Of a stretch of 64,000 nucleotides of DNA, positions 15,485-29,147 are shown piece by piece. This DNA comes from Acidobacteriota bacterium. GTDB taxonomy: Bacteria > Acidobacteriota > Thermoanaerobaculia > Multivoradales > Multivoraceae. The stretch spans positions 94 through 64,093 of the forward strand of contig JAPOVF010000270.1 in the NCBI GenBank assembly GCA_026708285.1. Reading direction: 5' to 3'. The position numbers and the translations under genes are program-made. The notes below the pieces were generated by a model. The model ran no database searches, was not told where the DNA came from, and saw only the letters and a list, made by a program, of their open reading frames with translations. Every line of letters begins with the position of its first letter. The stretch's first letter is position 1.

Positions 15485-15937
15485 CTAGCGGCCGGTCGAG
15501 CCGAAGCCGCCGTCGTTACGCTCTCCGGCAACCGGATGCACGCCGAGCGTGTCGTCGTCACGGAACGCGATCTCCGGTACCGCGGCGACCACCATCTGGG
15601 CCAGCCTTTCGCCGCGCTCGATCGTGATCGCGCGCCGGCCCAGGTTGACGAGCAGCAGTTTGACTTCGCCGCGGTAGTCGCTGTCGATCGTGCCGGGTGC
15701 GTTGAGTACGGTCAGGCCGCGGCGGAAGGCGAGCCCGCTACGGGGCCGGAGCTGGGCCTCGTGGCCGGGCGGAAGGCCGAGGATGAGACCGGTGGGAATC
15801 AGTGCGCGGGCGCCGGGTTCGATCCGGACCGCGGCCTCGGTGCCAGCCCGCAAATCGTAGCCAGCGCTTCCCGCCGAGGCGCGCTCGGGCGGTCCGGCGG
15901 AGTGTGGCAGCAGGCGGATGCCGACGGTGACAGTCAA
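15485..15937 (-). CDS. dut: dUTP diphosphatase
   Basis: C-terminal 150 codons of ORF 15485..16531. TTG 15937 overlaps the stop of the upstream pseudopilin gene (TTGA). SAGYDL, RSGLA, GTIDSDYRGE, FGSTG motifs. Confidence 0.88.
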   Translation of the reverse strand: MTVTVGIRLLPHSAGPPERASAGSAGYDLRAGTEAAVRIEPGARALIPTGLILGLPPGHEAQLRPRSGLAFRRGLTVLNAPGTIDSDYRGEVKLLLVNLGRRAITIERGERLAQMVVAAVPEIAFRDDDTLGVHPVAGERNDGGFGSTGR

Positions 15938-16671
15938 CGGCTGCGTTCCCGGTTGCGTTCTCCGGGTGCTGTGCCGTCCTGGACCTGTCCCTCCCCGAGC
16001 ACGCCGGGTGGGAACGGTTTGCCGATCCACGCACTGGTCAGACGCGGCGGCGGACGGCCCTCCGGGACGTTGCCGGGCCTGAGCTGGATCAGCTCGCTGG
16101 TGAAGTACCAGTTCTCCACGTCCTCCTGTCCATTGAACACCCTCATGGAAGGGCCGGGCGTGGCGCTGTAGACGCCCAGGATCGGTCCAACCGTCGGCCC
16201 TTCGCCCTCCTCCTCGTTCGGAGGCGGTACGGCGGTGAGCCCGCCGCCGGCGGCGCCACCCGTCGTGCCGGCGTTGGCTGGTCCGGCACTTCCCGTCCGG
16301 CGGTTCCCCTGCTGGCCCGCGTTGCCTGGAGTTCCCTGCATCAGCAGGCCCCAGCGACCCTCCTCGTCCATCGGATTGGGCCACAACTGCCGGATGACCC
16401 GTGGTTCGACCTCGATGAGTTCCTCGAGCGCCGTCGGCAGGCGGCCCTGGCGGACCCGGAAGAGGCGGATCGCCTCGGCGTACTGAAGCCCGCGGAAGAT
16501 CAGCTCCTCCTCCTTCTGCCGCTTGGCCCAACTGCTCCAGTAAGGCAGCGCCGCGGCGATCGCGATGTTCATCACCGTGATCAGCACGGCGAGCACAACG
16601 AGGTTGTAGCCGGCCTCGGAGGATCGGTCCGCGGGACAGGCGCCGCGGTTTGTCGGGTCACCAATCGGCAT
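15934..16671 (-). CDS. minor pseudopilin-like protein lacking Glu+5 (GspK-like trait), Gly/Pro-rich centre
   Basis: Hydrophobic prepilin-like N-terminus AG/YNLVVLAVLITVMNIAIAAAL, with Val where Glu5 is expected. Then KRQKEEELIFRGLQYAEAIRLF, paralogous to the two upstream pseudopilins. ATG 16671 chosen (16683 and 16716 also possible). Confidence 0.6.
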   Translation of the reverse strand: MPIGDPTNRGACPADRSSEAGYNLVVLAVLITVMNIAIAAALPYWSSWAKRQKEEELIFRGLQYAEAIRLFRVRQGRLPTALEELIEVEPRVIRQLWPNPMDEEGRWGLLMQGTPGNAGQQGNRRTGSAGPANAGTTGGAAGGGLTAVPPPNEEEGEGPTVGPILGVYSATPGPSMRVFNGQEDVENWYFTSELIQLRPGNVPEGRPPPRLTSAWIGKPFPPGVLGEGQVQDGTAPGERNRERSR

Positions 16672-17092
16672 AGGCGCTGCCATCCAGCGAGGTCTCCTCC
16701 GAACCGGAGTGGACATCCTCGATGCCGGGATCGCCGAAGGGCGAGAGATCGGTCTCGGCCCAGGGGTCCTCGTCGGAGAGGGCGGGGAACTCGGCGAAGA
16801 CCTCCACCCAGGTTTCGCTGGTGCGGGTGATCGGATCGAGTGGGATTGCGCGCAGGTACTCCTCTTCGACGAGCGCCTGGAGGCTCGGCGGGTAGTGCCC
16901 CTTGTCGGCGTAGTGCTGTTCGATGGCGTCGCGCATGACCCGGAGGTTCTGCTTCAGCGCCGCCTCCTGCGCCCGTCTGGGCGCGTTCTTCAGCAGGGGT
17001 ACCGCGACGGCGGCGAGGATGCCGATGATCGCCATGACGATGATCAGCTCCAGCAGGGACATGCCGCGCTGGCCCATGATTCTGCGATTCAT
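16658..17092 (-). CDS. gspG: type II secretion major pseudopilin GspG-like
   Basis: Prepilin leader and methylation motif MGQRG/MSLLELIIVMAIIGILAAVAVP. Then AQEAALKQNLRVMRDAIEQHYADKGHYPPSLQALVEEEYLRAIPLDPIT, which is GspG-like. Confidence 0.82.
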   Translation of the reverse strand: MNRRIMGQRGMSLLELIIVMAIIGILAAVAVPLLKNAPRRAQEAALKQNLRVMRDAIEQHYADKGHYPPSLQALVEEEYLRAIPLDPITRTSETWVEVFAEFPALSDEDPWAETDLSPFGDPGIEDVHSGSEETSLDGSAYADW

Positions 17093-17093
17093 G

Positions 17094-17573
17094 TCACCAC
17101 TCCCGGTATGGAACGCGATTCAGACCGACGCCTTCCGAGAGGGAGTAGACGTCGTAGACGTTCTCTCCACCCCAGTTCCTGTCGTCCGGTTCATCCTGGT
17201 AGCTCCTGAGTCCCCAGTCCGCCTCGCCGGTCATCGGGTCGACCGGAATGCGGCGCAGGAACCGGACCTCGCCGTCGGCCTGGCCGATCAACTGAACCGG
17301 CTCGATCAGGATCTCGAGTTCACTCGGATAGCCGTCGGTTCCGATCTCGATCGGAATCAGACCGACGTCGCTGTAGCGCTTGTGTTCGTCGATCGCGTTG
17401 CGCAGCGTGCGCAGGTGCGCCCGGAGTTCGGCCTCCTTGATCCGCTTGTTCGTGTAGACGGCGGTCGGCAGGGCGACCGCCGCCAGCGTCAGCATCACGG
17501 TGCACACGGTGACCAGTTCCACCAGCGTGTACCCGGCCCGTCGCCATCCGCGGTTCGGGACCAACGCCCTCAC
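17094..17573 (-). CDS. pseudopilin (prepilin-type N-terminal cleavage/methylation domain)
   Basis: RRAG/YTLVELVTVCTVMLTLAAVALP, followed by KEAELRAHLRTLRNAIDEHK. 4-nt overlap with the secretin stop. Confidence 0.72.
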   Translation of the reverse strand: MRALVPNRGWRRAGYTLVELVTVCTVMLTLAAVALPTAVYTNKRIKEAELRAHLRTLRNAIDEHKRYSDVGLIPIEIGTDGYPSELEILIEPVQLIGQADGEVRFLRRIPVDPMTGEADWGLRSYQDEPDDRNWGGENVYDVYSLSEGVGLNRVPYREW

Positions 17574-19960
17574 GCCACCGTCTCCGGTCCCCGGTCGGGT
17601 GGCTCGGCATCCTGGATCAGGATTTCCAGGGGGGCAACGGTCGGCAAGGGCAGCGCTTCGAGTTCGGGGCCCTTTGGCTTCGCCCGCTCGACCGCGATCG
17701 TGGCCTGCCCCGGGCGCACGGCCCGGACCTCGAGAGCCAGCAGGTGGCCCCGGCCGGCCACTCCCGCCCGATCGCCCAGCCGGCTCAGGCCGACGATGAC
17801 CGTGCCGGGTGTCGAATCATCCGTCATCAGGGAAACCTCGCTCTGATCTCCCAGGAAGGTCCCGCCGCGGACGGCGGTCACCTCGATCCGCTCGGGGTCG
17901 TACCGCAGCCGCAGAGGCAGGTGGGAGAGCGGAGTTCGGGCCCTGATATCCAGTCGCGCCTCGAAGCTGTCGCCGACCGTCGCGCGCAGCGCCTGGGGCG
18001 CGAAGGACAGCTCGATCTCGGCGTTGGCGCCCGGGGACGATGGCTGGAGTTGAGCGAGGACGATCGCCGGGGGATGGCCGAGCAGGCCGGCGTTCCTGAA
18101 CGAACCGTCCGGCGGCGGGACGAGTTCGACGCCCAGGGGAGGTTCGTCTTCGCCCTCGCCGCCGCCTTCGGGTTCCGCGTCGCGCAGGCCCGGCGGCAGG
18201 CGCTCCTCCAGTTGCTGCCGCGTGTCGTCGTTCGACTCCTGTGGCTCGTCGAACGGGCCGTCGATCCCGGAGTCGATGCGCGGACTCGAGCCTCTGAAGA
18301 CGACGTTCTGCTCCGTGCCGACCCAGATCGGCGCCAGGTCCTCTTCGGTGATGTCCGCCCGGCGGATGATGTGCGGCGTCAGCGTGAGCACGATGTCCGT
18401 GCGCGTGTTGTCGCTCGATCTCCTGGAGAAGAGGCGGCCCAGCACCGGGATCTCGGACAGGCCGGGGATCCCGTCCTGGGTGTTCCGCTCCTCCGTGCGG
18501 ATGAGCCCGGCGAGGAAGTTCGTTTCGCCGTCGCGGAGGCGGATGCTGGTCGTGATGTTGCGGCTGCCGATGATCGGCTGGTCGCCGATCTGGCCGCTCA
18601 CGTTGCTGACCTCGATGTCGAGGTCCAGCGACACCTCTTCGTTGTGGTGGACGCGGGGTGTGATGTCCACCTGGATGCCCACGTTCTGGTACTGGTACGA
18701 GGTGATGGGCACGACGTTGCTGCCCGCGGTGTTCGCCGTGTTGAAGCTCGTCACCGGGATCGGGACCCGGTCGCCGATCGAGAACGAACTCTCCTCTCCT
18801 TCGGTGATCCGCACCTGAGGCTTGGCCAGCGTCTGCGCGTCGGTCGATCTCTTCACGAAATCGAACAGGAAGCCGGGAACGGTCAGCACCCAGTTGTTCT
18901 GGTTCAGCGACTCGACGTCCGACATCCTGAGTGGCACGTCCTCGCCGCCGATGTCGAGGCTGATGCCGAGGGTGTTCGAGTCGAGCGACAGGCCGAGATC
19001 CTGAAGCTTGGACGTGTTGATCTGCAGCAGTTCCACGTCGATGACCACTTCGGCCTTCGCCTTGTCGGCCTGCTCGATGATGCGCTCCGCGACCTTGACC
19101 TTCTCGACGCTGTCGAGCATGACGATCGCGTTCAGCCGCTCGTTGGCGGCGATGAACCGGGTGGCCAGCAGGCTGCGCAGGACGGTCATCACGTCCTTCA
19201 CGTCCGCGTTGGAGAGAAAGAAGGTCTGGATGATCCGATCTTCGTACTGCTGGCGGTTCGCCGGCGTGTTCTGGAGGATCATGATCGTCTGCTCGTCGAG
19301 CACCTTGTAGAAGTGCCCCAGGCTCTGCATCAGGATCTCCAGGCCTTCGAGCGCGGTCACCTCGCGCAGCTCGATCGGGCTGGCGATCTGCGCGTCTCGC
19401 AGGCGGGGATCGAACACGACATTGAAGCCGAACGCCTGCCCCATCGCCCGGTAGATCTCCATGAAGGTCGCGTTCGGGAAGTCGAAGGTGATCGGTTCGT
19501 CGGAGCGCGGACTCAAGACCGGCGGCATCGGTTCGGCGCCGCGGCCCTCTTCCTTGAGCTGGGAGATGGTTCTCGGGCCAAGGCCGCTGCTCTCGATCCG
19601 GGTCCGGATCTTCTCCAGTTCGGTGAGGGCGTACTGGTTCGTCGGGTCGAGCTGCACGGCGCGCTGCATCTCCAGCAGCGCGTCGCGGTCACGGCCGGCC
19701 TCCTGCAGCTTCCTGCCCTGCTCGAAGTGGGCATGGGCGGCCTGGGTCTTGGCGCGCAGCAGACCGGCCCGGTAGCGGAGATCCGAAGGATCGGCGGCGA
19801 CCAGTTCCATGTAGCGGAGGACGGCCGTGTCCCAGTCGCCCGCGAATTCGGCGTGTTGGGCTTCGCGGAAGCTCCGGTAGCCGCTGCAGGAGGCAAAGAC
19901 CACCAGAGCCAGGAGAGCCAGCGCCAGGGAGCGCAGCCGTTGTCCGTTTCGTTGTGCCAT
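17570..19960 (-). CDS. secretin (GspD/PilQ family) with lipobox+TPR-like N-terminus and cohesin-like C-terminus
   Basis: LVVFASC lipobox-like signal. TPR-like helices in about residues 30-125. Secretin_N-like repeats (TFFLSNADVKDVMTVLRSLL...). Secretin core ending IPVLGRLFSRRSSDNTRTDIVLTLTPHII. Then an acidic linker and a beta-rich tail (VGDSFEARLDIRA...LRLRYDPERIEVTAV...GHLLALEVRAV). Confidence 0.85.
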   Translation of the reverse strand: MAQRNGQRLRSLALALLALVVFASCSGYRSFREAQHAEFAGDWDTAVLRYMELVAADPSDLRYRAGLLRAKTQAAHAHFEQGRKLQEAGRDRDALLEMQRAVQLDPTNQYALTELEKIRTRIESSGLGPRTISQLKEEGRGAEPMPPVLSPRSDEPITFDFPNATFMEIYRAMGQAFGFNVVFDPRLRDAQIASPIELREVTALEGLEILMQSLGHFYKVLDEQTIMILQNTPANRQQYEDRIIQTFFLSNADVKDVMTVLRSLLATRFIAANERLNAIVMLDSVEKVKVAERIIEQADKAKAEVVIDVELLQINTSKLQDLGLSLDSNTLGISLDIGGEDVPLRMSDVESLNQNNWVLTVPGFLFDFVKRSTDAQTLAKPQVRITEGEESSFSIGDRVPIPVTSFNTANTAGSNVVPITSYQYQNVGIQVDITPRVHHNEEVSLDLDIEVSNVSGQIGDQPIIGSRNITTSIRLRDGETNFLAGLIRTEERNTQDGIPGLSEIPVLGRLFSRRSSDNTRTDIVLTLTPHIIRRADITEEDLAPIWVGTEQNVVFRGSSPRIDSGIDGPFDEPQESNDDTRQQLEERLPPGLRDAEPEGGGEGEDEPPLGVELVPPPDGSFRNAGLLGHPPAIVLAQLQPSSPGANAEIELSFAPQALRATVGDSFEARLDIRARTPLSHLPLRLRYDPERIEVTAVRGGTFLGDQSEVSLMTDDSTPGTVIVGLSRLGDRAGVAGRGHLLALEVRAVRPGQATIAVERAKPKGPELEALPLPTVAPLEILIQDAEPPDRGPETVA

Positions 19961-19972
19961 GTCCTCTGATCC

Positions 19973-20560
19973 TCAGCCGTTCGGTCGACCACCTATCGCC
20001 AGTCGCACCGCGGGTTCGTCGGGAAAGCCGACGAACAGCAGGTCGACCGACTCGTAGCCGATCCGATGTACTTGAAACCGGTCCTTGACCAGGTCGCCCG
20101 TCAGCGCGTTGTAGATCGCGGAGCCGTCCGAGAACACGGCGACCGGATCGTCGTCGCGTCCCATTGTCCCGAGGTAGACGATGTCGACGGCGGGAGGCCG
20201 AGGGCCGATCGGCGTCGGCGCCGGCGGCCTCGGTCTCTCCGGCACGACGGGCTGAACGGCGATCGGCTTGGGCTCCGGAACCGTCGCTACGGGAACGGCT
20301 CGGTCCGGCGCCGGCCGGCTGGCGAACGACCAGGGGTCGCGGGTCGCCGTGACATCCAGCGGCGTTTCGTCCAGGATGTGAGCGGCCAGTTCCACCACCT
20401 CGATCGTGGCGGATTGCAGATCCGCGTGGGTAGTGCGGGTGAAGCCGGGTCCGCCGCCGAAGGACGGCAGATAGCGCCAGGCGGCGATCACGGCGACGAC
20501 TGCGAGCAGTACCAGCAGCAGGGGCCGCGGTCGGTTTGATCGGGCTTCGGCGGCGCTCAT
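19973..20560 (-). CDS. PilP / GspC-HR-like inner-membrane-anchored assembly protein
   Basis: N-terminal anchor LLLVLLAVVAVIAAW, Pro-rich linker, C-terminal beta domain IVYLGTMGRDDDPVAVFSDGSAIYNALTGDLVKDRFQVHRIGYESVDL. Position is directly upstream of the secretin. Confidence 0.5.
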   Translation of the reverse strand: MSAAEARSNRPRPLLLVLLAVVAVIAAWRYLPSFGGGPGFTRTTHADLQSATIEVVELAAHILDETPLDVTATRDPWSFASRPAPDRAVPVATVPEPKPIAVQPVVPERPRPPAPTPIGPRPPAVDIVYLGTMGRDDDPVAVFSDGSAIYNALTGDLVKDRFQVHRIGYESVDLLFVGFPDEPAVRLAIGGRPNG

Positions 20561-21135
20561 GCTCCCGCCTCCTGACCTGAGGGTCTGGCCTCACCGACGG
20601 AGAACAGGGTCGACAGACGCAGATCGATGCGCAGGTTGGGAGTCGCTTCGCTCAGGCTGATCGATTCGAGAGCGACGAACGTGTCGGTCATCTCGAGTTC
20701 GTTGATCAGCCGCCGCAACTGCGTGTAGTTCCCTTCGATGGTGAACACCAGCGACTTCTCGACCAGCCCGTACTGCTCCAGTTGCTCCTCGGGGTAGGAG
20801 ATGGAACCCGGGTGGAGTCCGGAGCGGTCGGCGAGTTCCTTGACCTCGCGAATGAGATCGGTCAGCCGTTCCCGCTCGGTGGCGAAGCCATCGCGGTAGA
20901 GGCTCTCCACGCGGTCGCGGGTCGCCTCGACCGTCGCCACCTGGCCCTCGCGGCGGGCCACCTCCTGGGTCGCGCGGGTGCGCAGGTTTCCTACGTCGGC
21001 GATCTCGTCCTCGAGGGCCTCGAAGCGCCCGGCGTAGACCCCGCGGTACGTCGAGAGCAGGCCCGCGTTGACCACGCACAGGCCCACTCCGACCCAGAAC
21101 CAGATGCGCAGGCGCCATATCCGCCGCCGGCTCAT
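20557..21135 (-). CDS. PilO / GspM-like assembly protein
   Basis: Single N-terminal TM (IWFWVGVGLCVVNAGLL), coiled-coil segment, C-terminal alpha/beta domain. ATGA overlaps on both sides. Call rests on architecture and position. Confidence 0.5.
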   Translation of the reverse strand: MSRRRIWRLRIWFWVGVGLCVVNAGLLSTYRGVYAGRFEALEDEIADVGNLRTRATQEVARREGQVATVEATRDRVESLYRDGFATERERLTDLIREVKELADRSGLHPGSISYPEEQLEQYGLVEKSLVFTIEGNYTQLRRLINELEMTDTFVALESISLSEATPNLRIDLRLSTLFSVGEARPSGQEAGA

Positions 21136-21806
21136 GGCTGGTTCTCCATTGGCGCCGCCTGCTCTCCGGCGGCCGCGGTGTCCGCGGCGGCCTCCGGCTC
21201 GCCCGGGGCGGATCCCGGCGTGTAGGCGACGGCGATCGAGAAGTCGACGGGACCCGTGTCTTCCCTGCTTTCGTGCCGTAGTTTCGGGTCGTGGAACGAC
21301 AGGTGAGCGAACAGGGCGTCCATCAGGGACAGGAGCGCCTCATCGTCCTGGGCTTCGCCGCTGATGTCGAGCATCACGCGCGTGGCGGCGTCGGGGCCCG
21401 GCTCGGTCCGGCGCCTGCGGCTCCTCTCACTCGGCTGCGGCGCGAGGCTGCGCAGCCGCGTGTTCCATGGCAGCACCTGCTCGATGTCGGTGAAGAGCTG
21501 CCCCCACGGGAACCGTCGATCCGCGATGCGCTCGTTCAGGAACGCCACCTCGCGGTTCTGGGAAGCTACGTCGAGACGCGCGAGCTGCGAACCCAAGCGG
21601 TCGAGTTCGGCGCGATCGACGGCAAGCTGCTGCCGGAGTTCGGCGAGTTCGGTGCGAGCGTCGGCCGAGCCGGTGAGGTAACCCCAGTACAGCACCGCGT
21701 TGAGGGCCAGAAGGGCCATCCCGAGCGTCCAGAGAAGCGCCGTCAGGCGCCGCCAGGGACGGCGGTTGACGAATGGACGGGCGGCCAGGTCGACCCCGGT
21801 CTTCAT
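21132..21806 (-). CDS. PilN-like assembly protein
   Basis: N-terminus VDLAARPFVNRRPWRR followed by a TM (LLWTLGMALLALNAVLYW) and a coiled coil, the PilN layout. ATGA overlaps on both sides. Confidence 0.55.
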   Translation of the reverse strand: MKTGVDLAARPFVNRRPWRRLTALLWTLGMALLALNAVLYWGYLTGSADARTELAELRQQLAVDRAELDRLGSQLARLDVASQNREVAFLNERIADRRFPWGQLFTDIEQVLPWNTRLRSLAPQPSERSRRRRTEPGPDAATRVMLDISGEAQDDEALLSLMDALFAHLSFHDPKLRHESREDTGPVDFSIAVAYTPGSAPGEPEAAADTAAAGEQAAPMENQP

Positions 21807-22778
21807 GTCCTCACCGTCAGCGAGGCGCCGAGCATCGGCAGCGCCTGCTCTACGTCGATGTCGAGGGTTTCGGCGCCGGAGCCGAAGACTCCGTTGCCGT
21901 CGAGAATCCGGGCGGGCAGTTCCAGTCCGTCTTCGAGCCGCTCGCGCCAGATGCCGCGGCTCTCCTCCGGGGCCAGCATCAGGGCGGTTCCGGGCAGAGT
22001 TCCGTCGTCGCCGAAGATCTCTCGCTCCTCGACGAAGCTCCTGGTCAGTCGCAGGTCGCGCACCGCCAGGCTTGAAGCGACGGAAGGCGGGAGGTTCGGG
22101 TCGATGCTCTTGTACCGGAACAGGGCCGGACCCTCCTCCGAGCGCGCGAGCAGGGAGTAGCCGTCACGATGCGCGACAAGGAGCAGGAAGGCGTCCGAGT
22201 CGCCGTGGATCCGGGAAATGCCGTTGGCAGCGCTCAGGCTCTCGTTCGTGACCGCACCGATGTGGACTCCGGCGCCCCTGAACGAACCTTCGATCTGGGC
22301 CAGGACGTGCTCGATGCCGAACCCGATCAGGAAGCGGGCGGAGCCGTTGCCCGCGGCGCCAGCCCGCTTGCCGCGCACACGGAGTTCCTCGACCCGGAAC
22401 GGCACCTGCTTTCGGAGCTTGAACCGCAGCGCCTCTTCCCGCCGTTGCGGCTTCGTGGGGACCTCTTCGAGTTCGGCGAAGGTCAGCCGGAGCCAGCGGT
22501 CCGGGAGAACCAGGGCGGCAGCGGTCACCGGGCTTCCGATGGCTGTGTCGGCGGCTTGCTGCAGCTCCGAGACGACCTCATGGAACTGAGCTGGCTCTCG
22601 TAGCGGTCCCCCCAGGGCGCCTTCCTGGAAGGTGTCGGCGGGAAGCTGCCGCCGCCTCACCGCCACCAGTTCCGGGACGGATCCGTCCCGGCGGAGGAAG
22701 TGGGCCAGGACGAGCTCGCGCTCGTCGAGCAGGAACACCGACGCCGGCCCCCGAGGGTCGTCGAGGCCGACCAGGCGT

Positions 22779-24463
<1,685 letters not shown>

Positions 24464-24464
<1 letters not shown>

Positions 24465-25705
24465 CAGCCTTGGACCTGTCCGAGCACGCTGAACAGAGGC
24501 AGATACATGGAGAGAACGAGCAGCGCGATCGTGAAGCCCATCACGACCAGCATCACCGGCTCGATCAGGGAGAGCAGGCGCTCGGTGCGGGTCTCGACGT
24601 CCTCGTCCAGAAAGTCGGAGACGCTGTTCACCATCTCGTCCAGCGCTCCGGTCGCTTCACCGACCTTGACCATGTCGATCGCGAGATCGGTGAACGCCTC
24701 GGATTCCTCGAGTGCCACATGGAAGGCAGCGCCCTCTCGAATCCGCGGGCCAAGAGCCGACGCGCGGCGGTGGAGGAATCGGTTCGTGACCGCGGAGGTC
24801 GCAGTGTCAAGCGCAGCGGCCAGCGGCAGTCCGCCGTGCAGCAGGGTGGCCAGGGAACGGCAGAACTCGGACAGCGCGAAGCGGTGGAGGATCGGTCCGA
24901 TGATCGGCAGCCGCAGCTTCAGACCGTCGACGACGGCGCCCAGGCGACCGCTGCGTCCAACCCTCCAGGCGGCCCAGACGGCGATGATCGCCGCTGCGAC
25001 CAGGAGCAGTGTGGTCGGGTTGCGCAACAGCGCCGACAGGCCGAGCAGCATCTGCGTGATCCAGGGCAGGTCGAGGTCGAGAGCCTGGTAGAACTCCTCG
25101 AAGCGTGGCATGACGAAGAACATCATCACGGCCACGATGCCGACCGACAGGCAGACCAGCAGCGCCGGGTAGAACAGCGCGCTGACGACGCGCTTGCGTG
25201 AACTGGTGACCAGTTTGAGTTGACGGACGTAACGGCGGATCACCTGCTCCAGGCCGCCGCTCTGCTCGCCGGCCTTGAGCATCGACGCGTAGATCGGCGG
25301 GAACGCCCCGCCGGCCTCGGCGAATGCGTCGGAAAGCTCGGCGCCGCTCTCGACCCGGTCCTTGATCTCGGCCAGCGCTTCCCTGAACGCGGTGTTGCGC
25401 TGCCGCTCGTGCATCAGCTCCAGGCATTGGAGCAGGGGCAGTCCGGCGCCGAGGAGGCCGGCCATCTGCTGATTGAAGACGAGGAAATCGGGGCCGGGGA
25501 TCGCCTTGCGCGAGCTGCCCTGTCCGCTCGCGGAGGCGGACCCCAGCAGCGATCCCAGCATGTGCTGCAGGCCGCGGCGTCTGATCTCGAAGACATGGAG
25601 CCCGCGACGCTCGATCTCGCGCCGCGCGCTCCTCAGATCGGGAGCCTCGTGAATCTGCTCGACGATGCGACCGTCGGCAGTGCCGAGCCGGCAGACGAAC
25701 TGCAT
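24464..25705 (-). CDS. gspF: type II secretion / type IV pilus platform protein (GspF/PilC family)
   Basis: 413 aa with two repeated GspF-type domains and three TM segments. Stop shares 1 nt with the gspE start (TGATG). Confidence 0.88.
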
Positions 25706-25718
25706 GACCGGGATCGCC

Positions 25719-26438
25719 CTACTCGCCCGCGCTCAGGTCGTCTTCCTGAGGTGGGCTGACGGTGACCGCGACGACCAGTCCGCTGTCGGCCGAGTCGCGG
25801 GACGAAATCGCCAGAACGAGGGGCTTGCCGACCCAGACGTTCACGTGGCCGTTGAAGATCCGCTCGCCCAGGCTGTCTCCGCGGCTGCGGTCGACCTCCA
25901 CGCCGTAGAGCTTGAGCCGGCGGTCGAGCAGCACGGTGCCGACCCGGAAGCCGATCCGGAACTCGGTACCGATATCGAAACGCACGTCCTCGCCTTCCAT
26001 GGCCTCGAACCGCCCCTCGCCGAGCTGCCGGTAGCTCGTGAAGGCCAGCCAATCGCCCAGTTCGTCGATGAGTTGGGCCGGCAACTCGGAACGCGGGTCG
26101 CCCTGGCCGCGGCGCGACGCCTCGAGAATGAAGATGTGCAACTCGACCTGACGGCGCGGGTGGTCGAAGTCACGGAGCAAGGCGAGCAGGTGCTCCAGAA
26201 CGCTGCGCGCGTCCCGCAGCACCAGCGTGTTCGTCGCGCGTTGCAGTTCGATCGTGCCGTGCGGCGACATCTCGCCCTGCATCCACTCCAGGGCGTCGTC
26301 GGCGCGCTGATGCTGGAGCGTGAACGCGTGGCGGACCTGGGTCTCGGCCTCCTGCTGCGCGGCCCCCGCCGCCGAGAGCAGTAGCGGAAGGATGACGGCG
26401 AGGGCGACGCGCGTACTCGCGGAAGCAGCCGCCGTCAT
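25719..26438 (-). CDS. secreted protein with one secretin-N-like domain and a short beta-rich tail (mini-secretin-like)
   Basis: Signal peptide VALAVILPLLLSAAGAAQQ. Sequence HAFTLQHQRADDALEWMQGEMSPHGTIELQRATNTLVLRDARSVLEHLLALLRDFDHPRRQVELHIFILEAS looks like a Secretin_N/NolW module. About 120 aa follow. Confidence 0.6.
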   Translation of the reverse strand: MTAAASASTRVALAVILPLLLSAAGAAQQEAETQVRHAFTLQHQRADDALEWMQGEMSPHGTIELQRATNTLVLRDARSVLEHLLALLRDFDHPRRQVELHIFILEASRRGQGDPRSELPAQLIDELGDWLAFTSYRQLGEGRFEAMEGEDVRFDIGTEFRIGFRVGTVLLDRRLKLYGVEVDRSRGDSLGERIFNGHVNVWVGKPLVLAISSRDSADSGLVVAVTVSPPQEDDLSAGE

Positions 26439-27001
26439 GGTGCGATTTCCGTGACGACCAGGACCATGTCGAGCTTGGAGTCGATGCCGTTCCCCGGGAA
26501 CTGGAAGACGCCCATCGGCTCGTCGCCGAGCGGTTCGACGAGCGGGGCCATGGCGATATGGGGTGAGAGACTCAGTTCGGAGTCCACGACGTCGCCGGGC
26601 GACGGCGTGGTCTCCGGCCAGAGCAGGAAGCCCAGGCCGAACGCCGCCGCCGCGGCGCCTGCCGCAAGGACCGACGCGACGGGGACCCGTCGGCGAGCGG
26701 TGCGGGCCGCCCTGAGCCGCCGTTCGGTGGCGCGCCCGTCGAGTTCGAGCCGGACCCGCCTGCGGAGTTCATCGACCTCCCGTGCCGTGTCGGCGCGGTC
26801 ATGAACGCCGGCGAAAGCACCGCTCATGAGGAGCAGCGGATCGACCTGGAGCGAAACCGCGCGGCAATGCGCGCAGTCCTCCCGGTGCCGCAGGGCATCT
26901 GCCCAGGCCCGGTCGATGGCCGTGGCGCCGATCTCAGGGCCCTGTTCGGCGTGCTCGCGCTCGCGCGCGAGAGCGGCCCAGTCCGGGCAGGCGGTCGTCA
27001 T
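26435..27001 (-). CDS. zinc-binding anti-sigma factor (ZAS, zf-HC2), single-pass membrane protein
   Basis: HREDCAHC matches HxxxCxxC. TM segment VASVLAAGAAAAAFGLGFLLW. ATGA overlaps with the sigma factor upstream and the next gene downstream. Confidence 0.78.
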   Translation of the reverse strand: MTTACPDWAALAREREHAEQGPEIGATAIDRAWADALRHREDCAHCRAVSLQVDPLLLMSGAFAGVHDRADTAREVDELRRRVRLELDGRATERRLRAARTARRRVPVASVLAAGAAAAAFGLGFLLWPETTPSPGDVVDSELSLSPHIAMAPLVEPLGDEPMGVFQFPGNGIDSKLDMVLVVTEIAP

Positions 27002-27708
27002 GAGCGATCCTCAATCCCGGTGTGCTTCACCCGGGCGTTTTGGGCGTATTCGGGATACCGCTTCCGCAACTCCTTGCGGAGTTGCCGGCGGCTGTTGAAC
27101 AGGTGGTTGCGGACGGTGGACGGGCGAATGCCGAGAATGCGGGCGATCTCCTTGCCCTTCAGCCCTTCCATTTCGCGCAGTACGAAGACCGCGCGCTGCT
27201 TCTCGCTCAGCGTCGACGCCAACTCGTGAAACACGGTCTGGATCTCCTGTTCGGACAGGTTCTCGAGTTGGCGCGCGAAGGCTTCGCCGCGCTGGTGCTC
27301 GTGCTGCAACTGGAAGCTCTGCAGCGAGCGGATGCGGGACGCCCGTGACCGCAGGTGGTCGATCGCGAGGTTGGAGACGATGCGGTAGATCCAGGTGTTC
27401 GGGCTGTAGCGCTGGTCGAAGCGGTGGCGCGAATCCCAGATGCGCAGGAAAGCGATCTGGACGATGTCGCGTGCGTCCTCCCGGTCGCCTACCATGCTGG
27501 TCGCCAGGTGCAGCAGATGTGATGCCTTGCGGCGCATCAACTCGTCGAGCGCGAGTTCGTCATCGCGGCGCATGCCCGCCAGGAGTTCGACGTCGGCCGC
27601 CTCGGACCACTCCACCCTGCGCTGACGTTGCGAGTAGGCAATCGTCAGACCGCTGCGTGGAGGATCTTCGCGTGGCGGTTCCATGCGGATGGCTTGCGCG
27701 GATCTCAT
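26998..27708 (-). CDS. ECF-type RNA polymerase sigma-70 family factor
   Basis: ORF 26998..28023 trimmed to ATG 27708 (27684 is an alternative). Region 2: DARDIVQIAFLRIWDSRHRFD...NTWIYRIVSNLAIDHLR. Region 4: QRAVFVLREMEGLKGKEIARILGIRPSTVRNHLFNSRRQLR. Confidence 0.88.
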   Translation of the reverse strand: MRSAQAIRMEPPREDPPRSGLTIAYSQRQRRVEWSEAADVELLAGMRRDDELALDELMRRKASHLLHLATSMVGDREDARDIVQIAFLRIWDSRHRFDQRYSPNTWIYRIVSNLAIDHLRSRASRIRSLQSFQLQHEHQRGEAFARQLENLSEQEIQTVFHELASTLSEKQRAVFVLREMEGLKGKEIARILGIRPSTVRNHLFNSRRQLRKELRKRYPEYAQNARVKHTGIEDRS

Positions 27709-27863
27709 GCCTCGCTGTTGATACGGAGGCCCGGGGCAAAGCGTCCAAAGACTGCGCTGCCAGGAACCTGGAACGCTCACCGCCCGGCGGCCACGACGGC
27801 TGGAGACGGCCGAATTATACTCCCCGACAGGTGCGGCCGCTGACCAGCCGGCTCGTCTGAAGC

Positions 27864-29147
27864 ATGTGGTTCCTGTACCAGCTCGCGATGGCGGCAGGGT
27901 TGGGCCTGGCGGCGCCGGTGCTGCTGGCCCGGCGCGGTCGCCACTATCTGGCGACCCTTCCGGCCCGGCTCGGCCACCTGCCGGCGGCTCGGGGACAGCG
28001 GCCGCTGTGGCTTCACGCCGCATCGGTCGGCGAGGCCGGTGTGGCGGCGACCTTCGCGCGGGCGCTGCCGGCGGGACTCGACCTGCTGGTGACCACGGTC
28101 ACGCCGACCGGCCAGGCGGCGGCGAAGAAACTGTTCGACCCTTTGGCCGAAGCCGGGCGCAGCGTCGTCGTCACCTATCTGCCATTCGACTTCGACCCAC
28201 TGGTTTCCCGGTTTCTGGAGCGCTACGGGCCACGGGCTCTGGTGCTGTTCGAGAGTGAGCTCTGGCCCTTCGTGCTGAGGAGTTGCCGCCGGCGCGGGAT
28301 TCCGGTGGCGGTGCTCAACGCGCGCGTCAGCGACCGTAGCTTCGCCCGCATGAGACGAGCCGGCGGCCTGGGCCGGCGGGCGCTGCTCGATCCGGTCCAG
28401 CGCTTCGGTGCCCAGAGCCCGCAGGACGAGGATCGACTGCGGAGTCTTGGCGCTTCGGACGGAGCCGTGTCCTTGACCGGCAACCTGAAGTTCGACACGC
28501 CGGAGCCGGCGCCGGTCGCCGGCCTGGAGCGGACGTTGCGGGAACTCGCGGGAGGGCGGCCCGTCCTGGTCGCCGGCTCGACGATGCCGGGCGAAGAGCC
28601 AATCGTCCTGGACGCCTTCGAACGGCTGGACCACGAGGCCCTGCTGGTTCTGGCGCCCCGGCATCCGGAGCGTTTCGACGAGGTGTGGCGAGAGATCGAG
28701 GGCAGGTCTCTGGGGGCGTTCCGGCGGAGCGCGTTCCCCCCGGAAGGGTCGGGCGCGCCGTGGCGGGAATCCACGTCTCGGGTCGTGCTGCTCGACTCCC
28801 TCGGCGAACTCGCCTCCATCTACCGGCTGGCGGCCGCCGCGTTCATCGGCGGCTCCCTGGTGCCCACCGGCGGCCACAATCCGATCGAGGCGGCGCGCTT
28901 CGGCGTGCCGGTCCTCGTCGGCCCGTCGATGGAGAACTTCCGGCGCATCGCGCGGGACTTCGAGGCCGAGGGCGGCCTGACCGTGACCGGCGACGGCGAG
29001 GCATTGAGCCGCGCCTGGAGGCGCTTCCTGGATCGACCGGACGAGGCAGCGGAACAGGGCCGGCTCGGCCGAGCGATCGTCAACCGCAACCGCGGCGCGG
29101 TCGAGCGGTCGGTCGAACTCCTGAGTGGACTGGTCGACCTGGCTTGA
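27864..29147 (+). CDS. waaA: 3-deoxy-D-manno-octulosonic acid (Kdo) transferase
   Basis: PLWLHAASVGEAGVA...TTVTPTG, C-terminal GGSLVPTGGHNPIEAARFGVPVLVGP. Confidence 0.9.
   Translation: MWFLYQLAMAAGLGLAAPVLLARRGRHYLATLPARLGHLPAARGQRPLWLHAASVGEAGVAATFARALPAGLDLLVTTVTPTGQAAAKKLFDPLAEAGRSVVVTYLPFDFDPLVSRFLERYGPRALVLFESELWPFVLRSCRRRGIPVAVLNARVSDRSFARMRRAGGLGRRALLDPVQRFGAQSPQDEDRLRSLGASDGAVSLTGNLKFDTPEPAPVAGLERTLRELAGGRPVLVAGSTMPGEEPIVLDAFERLDHEALLVLAPRHPERFDEVWREIEGRSLGAFRRSAFPPEGSGAPWRESTSRVVLLDSLGELASIYRLAAAAFIGGSLVPTGGHNPIEAARFGVPVLVGPSMENFRRIARDFEAEGGLTVTGDGEALSRAWRRFLDRPDEAAEQGRLGRAIVNRNRGAVERSVELLSGLVDLA

Follow-up and report, generated by a model that had tools for sequence, protein, structure and literature searches.

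A secretin with a lipobox and TPR head and a C-terminal cohesin in Thermoanaerobaculia, and a dockerin-bearing esterase as its candidate partner

In the secretins of type II secretion systems (T2SS), type III secretion systems (T3SS) and type IV pili (T4P) whose structures have been solved, the C-terminus, or S-domain, lies on the periplasmic face of the outer membrane and is bound by inner-leaflet pilotins. The T4P pilotins PilF, PilW and Tgl are separate outer-membrane lipoproteins with about six tetratricopeptide repeats (TPRs). How the T2SS recognizes its folded cargo is a long-standing open question, and we know of no linear or modular signal for it. Here we describe a secretin of 796 amino acids that combines a lipobox and a short TPR bundle at its N-terminus with a cohesin module at its C-terminus. 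It is encoded by the open reading frame (ORF) at 17570..19960, minus strand, of a 64,000-nucleotide stretch of an Acidobacteriota genome (contig JAPOVF010000270.1), hereafter the window. A known exception to pilotin dependence is the HxcQ liposecretin of Pseudomonas aeruginosa (Viarre et al. 2009, as cited in PMC12475490). Saccharophagus degradans carries orphan cohesin-like and dockerin-like modules (PMC2386152), and in Omnitrophota T2SS-like loci lie beside giant dockerin-type genes (bioRxiv 10.1101/2023.11.21.568195).

The window's secretin resembles GspD and PilQ in its N0, Secretin_N and C-terminal pore domains, and in an operon that encodes GspE/PilB, GspF/PilC, PilM/N/O-like proteins and GspG-like pseudopilins. 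It departs from both in scoring far under their equivalog cutoffs, in having one Secretin_N and no Pfam match to an AMIN domain, in the long acidic linker and cohesin that replace the helical S-domain, and in the added N-terminal lipobox and TPR bundle. It shares an N-terminal lipoprotein signal with HxcQ, whose lipid anchor stands in for a separate pilotin; lipidation here, however, is predicted from a sequence pattern, and HxcQ has, to our knowledge, neither a TPR bundle nor a cohesin. Like PilF, PilW and Tgl, the head has a lipid anchor followed by TPR repeats and is associated with a secretin, but it has two repeats and a cap only, and is fused to the secretin itself. The tail recalls the cohesin–dockerin pairs of C. 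thermocellum (OlpC/OlpA), C. acetobutylicum (CohA2) and Archaeoglobus fulgidus (2xdh) in its nine-strand jelly-roll cohesin (template modelling (TM) score 0.77-0.83), and the candidate partner has a C-terminal dockerin with a duplicated Ca2+-loop. Unlike those pairs, these modules belong to a Gram-negative envelope with no scaffoldin and no carbohydrate-active enzymes, and the two cohesins sit on a secretion pore and on a small lipoprotein. With a single dockerin, borne by an esterase, and two proteins of one cohesin each, the genome does not have the make-up of a cellulosome, in which a scaffoldin with multiple cohesins serves many carbohydrate-active enzymes with dockerins. The Omnitrophota also join a T2SS/T4P-like machine to dockerin proteins in an uncultured lineage, but in that case the two are connected through gene neighbourhood, the proteins are giant and a secretin–cohesin fusion is not reported, whereas here the receptor would lie in the secretin and the dockerin is on a small, unlinked esterase.

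The tripartite layout that the earlier note had read from the DNA, a lipobox and TPR head, a secretin core and a cohesin tail, is real. All parts lie on the minus strand. The signal peptide and lipobox (VFAS-C, Cys25; 19886..19960), assigned by pattern match and family conservation, precede a short TPR bundle at precursor residues ~26-125 (19586..19885). A linker at residues ~126-156 (19493..19585) is predicted to be disordered, with a predicted local distance difference test (pLDDT) score <50 for mature residues 102-121 in the AlphaFold2 (AF2) model. It leads to an N0-type domain at residues ~157-230 (19271..19492), modelled with a beta-alpha-beta-beta-alpha-beta-beta fold (pLDDT ~83) and matched by Foldseek to MxiD N0-N1 (6rwk). 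The N1-type Secretin_N domain follows at residues 245-303 (19052..19228; PF03958, E 5.6e-9, 36.5 bits, above cutoff), and the pore domain spans residues 370-533 (18362..18853; PF00263, E 1.8e-41, 142 bits against a cutoff of 27.5). In the translation, residues 534-645 (18026..18361) comprise a conserved post-secretin segment (RRADITEEDLAPIWVGTEQNVVFRG...) and an acidic, Pro-rich linker, the cohesin module occupies residues ~646-785 (17606..18025), and a short acidic/Pro C-terminal tail with the stop codon ends the gene (17570..17605). The note's secretin core and its acidic/Pro linker ahead of the C-terminal domain are thus borne out, the latter at ~110 amino acids, with conservation over its first ~40 residues among those orthologues that were read. 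Its "Secretin_N repeats" stand in part, as one Secretin_N and one N0-type domain; Pfam detects no second Secretin_N. The C-terminal cohesin it had picked out by eye at 17670-18015 holds up in profile and structure searches over the slightly wider span given above.

The cohesin assignment does not follow from the window's copy by itself. The isolated C-terminal 150 residues have PF00963 as their sole Pfam match, at 16.8-16.9 bits against a cutoff of 24.1, which is insufficient for a call. The question was settled by hidden Markov model counts over the family, by a profile search of PDB and by the fold. In alignment A1, consisting of 39 non-redundant copies of the C-terminal module, 36 of the 39 orthologous domains match PF00963 (E<=0.01, best 1.9e-10), and searching PDB sequences with the A1 profile returns essentially only cohesins (3l8q, 1.3e-5; 2xdh, 0.0034). 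AF2 on A1 gives an all-beta model (pLDDT 94.8, predicted TM score 0.86), for which the top 50 Foldseek PDB matches are all cohesins. The best is 6kgd_A (TM 0.83, root-mean-square deviation 2.0 A, E 1.3e-10), and the matches include the non-cellulosomal Archaeoglobus cohesin 2xdh and the surface-anchoring OlpC and OlpA (4dh2, 3ul4). As modelled, the C-terminal module is a genuine cohesin fold.

The layout is general among relatives. In a search of 5.8 billion proteins, 4,085 relatives at E <= 1e-5 were found among the candidates scored, and the best 120 were examined; these are full-length or nearly so, and all that carry source names are from Acidobacteriota. The C-terminal module is present in 117 of 121 family members. 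Many relatives at ~50% identity carry precomputed Pfam matches to Cohesin, TPR, Secretin_N and Secretin, and one is named "cohesin domain-containing protein" by NCBI.

The search for a dockerin-like partner that the earlier note had proposed turned up one candidate. In the window's own genome (4.99 Mb, 93.6% complete), a single dockerin scores above the Pfam cutoff. It belongs to a 388-amino acid protein (contig C242, locus L001:514-1680) that has a signal peptide, a GDSL/SGNH esterase domain (PF13472, 2.7e-27), a middle region of ~100 amino acids that looks beta-rich by eye, and the C-terminal dockerin itself (5.4e-7; residues ~325-388), in which the duplicated Ca2+-loop is canonical. There is no NCBIfam match to this esterase-dockerin. 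Across the family it is conserved in single copy, with a length of ~396-410 amino acids, and signal peptides of the signal peptidase I type are kept in the orthologues with a readable N-terminus. The closest solved relatives of its catalytic domain are small SGNH esterases, including the carboxylesterase 7c29 and P. aeruginosa TesA (4jgg), which we take to be periplasmic; no known peptidoglycan O-acetylesterase was seen among the structural matches.

The secretin tail is the only Pfam cohesin-like match in the same genome. With the A1 profile, a second, paralogous cohesin was found in a 176-amino acid lipoprotein (C194:1618-2148, locus L015), which has a lipobox (...LGLAAC), a Gly/Ser/Pro stalk and a single cohesin (hhalign against A1, probability 98%, E 1.7e-13), and no match in Pfam or NCBIfam. 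Its lipobox is kept in orthologues, and most genomes of the order carry one copy of the protein. The gene sits between def and cysS, and that of the esterase near ychF; both neighbourhoods are uninformative. As a candidate receptor for the dockerin, this small lipoprotein cohesin, of which the earlier note was not aware, is at least as good as the cohesin of the secretin.

The presence of the esterase-dockerin tracks that of the cohesins. We scored the secretin cohesin, the small cohesin and the esterase-dockerin in 57 genomes of the same GTDB family and in 13 further genomes of the same order. All three are present in 50 of the 57 family genomes, including G056, where a divergent orthologue was found by protein search. 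Two family genomes (G006 and G007) lack the small cohesin only, and two more have the secretin cohesin only: G010, a 1,390-contig assembly, and G032, in which the esterase-dockerin is reduced to two short fragments. The remaining three (G035, G038 and G046) have none of the parts. Outside the family, 11 of the 13 genomes have both cohesins and at least one dockerin, with a full-length esterase-dockerin orthologue verified in 6 and a Pfam dockerin in a 400-470-amino acid frame in the other 5. The other two are G161, which has the small cohesin and the esterase-dockerin and a secretin ORF that stops past the linker while the contig runs on for 1.9 kb, and G175, a 5.2 Mb genome that has none of the parts even though its congener G096 has all three. 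In none of the 70 genomes does the esterase-dockerin occur without any cohesin, and it is absent from all four that lack both cohesins. The secretin–cohesin fusion and the small cohesin are for the most part restricted to the window's order; elsewhere in the class there are only three weak matches, on distant secretins.

The co-absence does not go back to one ancestral loss. In a gene tree of the secretin core, a branch with support 100/99 parts the cohesin-less secretin L049 from two others, L050 and L095, and a single clade for the three is rejected by the approximately unbiased (AU) test (p=0.00012). G175 belongs to a different family from the genomes of these secretins and, at 5.2 Mb, is not a reduced genome. 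The tree, the AU test and the placement of G175 together show that both cohesins and the esterase-dockerin were lost at least three times independently. G032 (secretin L030) adds a further, partial loss in a different sub-clade.

What remains after loss is also informative. In the cohesin-less secretins the cohesin has been cleanly excised and the linker kept, and the post-secretin segment and linker persist there, in orthologues at 58-76% identity. A pseudogene or frameshift origin was rejected, as none of the frames holds a remnant and each ORF comes to a clean end past the linker. Flanking sequence was fetched for the three same-genus genomes among the four with co-loss, and in all three the entire secretion operon is intact and syntenic. 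Clean excision beside an intact operon indicates that the module goes with the esterase and the small cohesin as an accessory and is not part of the core machine. The TPR bundle was considered as an intramolecular partner of the cohesin and rejected, since it is unchanged in secretins that lost the cohesin. The terminal branches of L049, L050 and L095 are 0.22-0.25 long against a median of 0.02, or ~10x longer, which could reflect relaxed or altered selection on the pore.

Several observations weigh against reading the secretin cohesin as a receptor for this dockerin. G032 keeps the secretin cohesin although its small cohesin is gone and its esterase-dockerin is decaying, so that the dockerin may rely on the small lipoprotein cohesin to a greater extent than on that of the secretin, and G161 retains the dockerin although its secretin has no cohesin. 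The esterase is encoded at a site not linked to the secretion operon. Pfam also reports dockerin-like repeats in genomes of the class that have no cohesin, and in giant proteins, and a dockerin match alone is therefore not specific; for this reason the Pfam dockerin was rejected as a clean class-level marker and the esterase-dockerin orthologue was used instead. The independence of the losses is judged from a secretin gene tree in which the cohesin-less rows are long-branched. General gene loss is a partial confounder, since three of the four genomes with co-loss are smaller (3.7-3.9 Mb) than any others of their genus. The sub-cutoff Pfam score of the window's own cohesin counts on the same side.

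Two side observations concern these dockerins. The remnants in G032 (C1:2637034-2637258; loci L102 and L106) correspond to residues 229-277 and 361-386 of the esterase-dockerin and have the look of a pseudogene in decay. Dockerin-like repeats unrelated to the esterase lie in open frames of 1,900-2,100 amino acids in another family of the order, at C1:1199001-1204810 in G096 and C1:3770194-3770349 in G175.

Taken together, we tentatively favor, at a little below an even chance, that the cohesin of the secretin is one of two receptors for the single dockerin protein of the genome and docks the exported esterase at the secretin, probably in the periplasm. Starting from the lipid anchor, the predicted order is the short TPR bundle, a flexible linker, N0, N1, the pore, an acidic/Pro tether of ~110 residues and the cohesin. 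Because the C-terminus of solved secretins is periplasmic, a secretin of 12-15 subunits would place a ring of tethered cohesins around the periplasmic vestibule. By capturing the Ca2+-folded dockerin, these could concentrate the Sec-exported esterase at the entrance of the machine, to be secreted or handed on to the lipoprotein cohesin, which would be a second station. The architecture, the cohesin fold, the single dockerin, the second cohesin and the phyletic co-dependence are shown here; that the partners bind, that they meet in the periplasm and that the esterase is cargo of the machine are suppositions. The earlier note had suggested that the tail tethers a partner or cargo at the outer membrane; a specific candidate partner does exist, but the location is ambiguous, and known secretin topology favors docking in the periplasm over docking on the cell surface. 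A bolder version, that cohesin and dockerin form a modular, transferable address system, in which the dockerin would be a secretion or docking tag read by a receptor in the pore and the lipoprotein cohesin a second station, seems to us rather unlikely.

The same periplasmic topology would also suit an esterase that never leaves. A resident enzyme, either a TesA-like lysophospholipase/esterase or a cell-wall or lipid deacylase, might be scaffolded by both cohesins, for example for local remodelling of lipid or peptidoglycan near the pore. The expected periplasmic position of the secretin C-terminus, the kinship of the esterase to small SGNH enzymes such as TesA, its unlinked gene and the persistence of the operon without the cohesin/esterase module all fit this account, and the present data do not separate retention from secretion. 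However, the structural matches offer no peptidoglycan O-acetylesterase, and residence leaves unexplained why a receptor was fused to the secretin and not to another envelope protein; we consider it unlikely. If instead the tail reached the surface, the cohesin could display a secreted esterase outside the outer membrane, in the manner of OlpA and OlpC of cellulosomal bacteria. This is closest to the wording of the earlier note, and both the presence of those two anchoring proteins among the best structural matches and the long flexible linker, together with a second, lipid-anchored cohesin, recall surface display systems. Yet the C-terminus is periplasmic in solved T2SS, T3SS and T4P secretins, the linker sequence shows no transmembrane or surface-export feature, and surface display is the least probable of the alternatives.

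Finally, the cohesin might bind something other than a dockerin, such as a machine component, peptidoglycan or neighboring protomers, or be purely structural, and the co-loss might reflect shared ecology or gene loss. Non-cellulosomal cohesins of unknown partner are widespread. The orphan modules reported in one Gram-negative (PMC2386152) are in keeping with this. G032, where the secretin cohesin outlived the dockerin gene, and G161, where the dockerin is present although the secretin has no cohesin, also lend some support to another ligand or a structural role. Such a ligand is hard to square with at least three independent triple losses and with the one dockerin and two paralogous cohesins per genome. 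Nor does a machine partner fit well, since the TPR bundle and all machine genes are retained after cohesin loss and are therefore not obligate partners of the cohesin; we regard this possibility as quite unlikely.

The N-terminal head is conserved as well. The segment ALLALVVFASC matches a PROSITE-type lipoprotein pattern with Cys25 as the predicted lipid-bearing residue, and the strict pattern is found in 115 of 121 family members, in agreement with the lipobox of the earlier note. Among the six members that do not fit, at least four keep an obvious near-lipobox Cys and the remaining two have apparently mis-called starts. Residue +2 after the Cys is S, T, A or G in the family and never Asp. 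Judged from the pattern, the best explanation is that the protein is made as a predicted lipoprotein. For the TPR part, TPR_2 matches the isolated N-terminus at E=3e-5, under the Pfam gathering score, with TPR_14 also sub-threshold, and many orthologues carry precomputed TPR matches. An AF2 model of mature residues 1-221 (alignment A2) has five helices within residues 1-100 (pLDDT 83-96), forming two TPR hairpins and a capping helix, then the disordered stretch at 102-121 and N0. Foldseek places the head with generic TPR arrays (1na0, E 2.5e-4), and no pilotin of the PilF/PilW/Tgl type is among the top 50 matches of the N-terminal model. On the model, then, the TPR part is real but short and generic. 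The description of the N-terminus as pilotin-like, which the earlier note had used, survives in the repeats themselves; no specific similarity to pilotins was found among those top 50 matches, and the term is overstated except as an analogy, without membership. Self-piloting is plausible by analogy with HxcQ and given the conserved lipobox. As a separate observation, residues 7-118 (19622-19942, minus strand) align in NCBIfam to the N-terminus of TraC, a myxobacterial outer-membrane-exchange lipoprotein (NF040658, E 2.9e-9), which hints at a lipoprotein–TPR head module shared by two phyla.

The secretin lies within a minus-strand operon that runs in the order extracytoplasmic function (ECF) sigma factor, putative anti-sigma factor, small Secretin_N protein, GspF, GspE/PilB, PilM-, PilN- and PilO/GspM-like proteins, an unknown 195-amino acid ORF, the secretin, three GspG-like pseudopilins and dut. 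The ECF-type sigma factor (family matches to Sigma70_r2/r4 and Sigma70_ECF) and the small ORF downstream of it, putatively anti-sigma by position only, occupy 26435-28023; a sigma factor of this kind at the head of the operon suggests envelope-stress-type regulation of the machine. The next gene (25719..26438) encodes a 239-amino acid protein with a single Secretin_N-like domain (PF03958, E 9.3e-6, 26.2 bits, just under cutoff), a possible GspC/PilP-like connector. The GspF/PilC-type platform protein (24464..25705; PF00482, E 4.9e-57) and the GspE/PilB-type assembly ATPase (22779..24464; PF00437, E 3.9e-130) are clear, with the ATPase scoring 551 bits to TIGR02533 and 542 bits to TIGR02538, both under cutoffs. 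The alignment subcomplex (19973..22810), consisting of the PilM-like, PilN and PilO/GspM-like genes and the 195-amino acid ORF, is assigned from weak PilN and PilO matches, a GspM_XpsM match and synteny. Two of the three pseudopilin genes (15934..17573) match N_methyl, TIGR01710 or TIGR02532; the third (15934-16716) has no family match and is assigned by position and synteny. Directly after it, dut (dUTPase; 15485-15940) is syntenic with the operon in all relatives checked, as are the alignment-subcomplex genes, the pseudopilins and the small Secretin_N protein.

For the secretin, the best NCBIfam match is GspD (TIGR02517) at 159.4 bits against an equivalog cutoff of 351.35, with only residues 363-535 aligning well, and PilQ (TIGR02515) scores 98.8 bits against 284.35. 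Because the GspD, PilQ, GspE and PilB equivalog scores are all below cutoff, we call this a T2SS/T4P-like type IV filament machine and not a canonical T2SS; the best explanation of the gene is as the secretin of such a machine in a Candidatus Multivorans-type Thermoanaerobaculia bacterium.

The individual domains are already annotated by database pipelines and all parts are of known kinds; what is new is the combination and its implied use. We found no description in the literature of a secretin–cohesin fusion or of a cohesin–dockerin link to type II secretion. The N-terminal lipid anchor and TPR bundle would be a further natural variant of pilotin-less secretins. If the binding is true, the secretin would offer a clean model of cargo docking that can be tested and may be portable, and would extend cohesin–dockerin biology from Gram-positive cellulosomes to the Gram-negative envelope. 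If the address system is true, T2SS-type cargo would have in the dockerin its first recognition signal that is both defined and portable. In this order the plug, a dockerin, and its sockets, the cohesins, have been lost together repeatedly, which suggests plug-and-socket delivery of a cargo enzyme to a type II-like machine.

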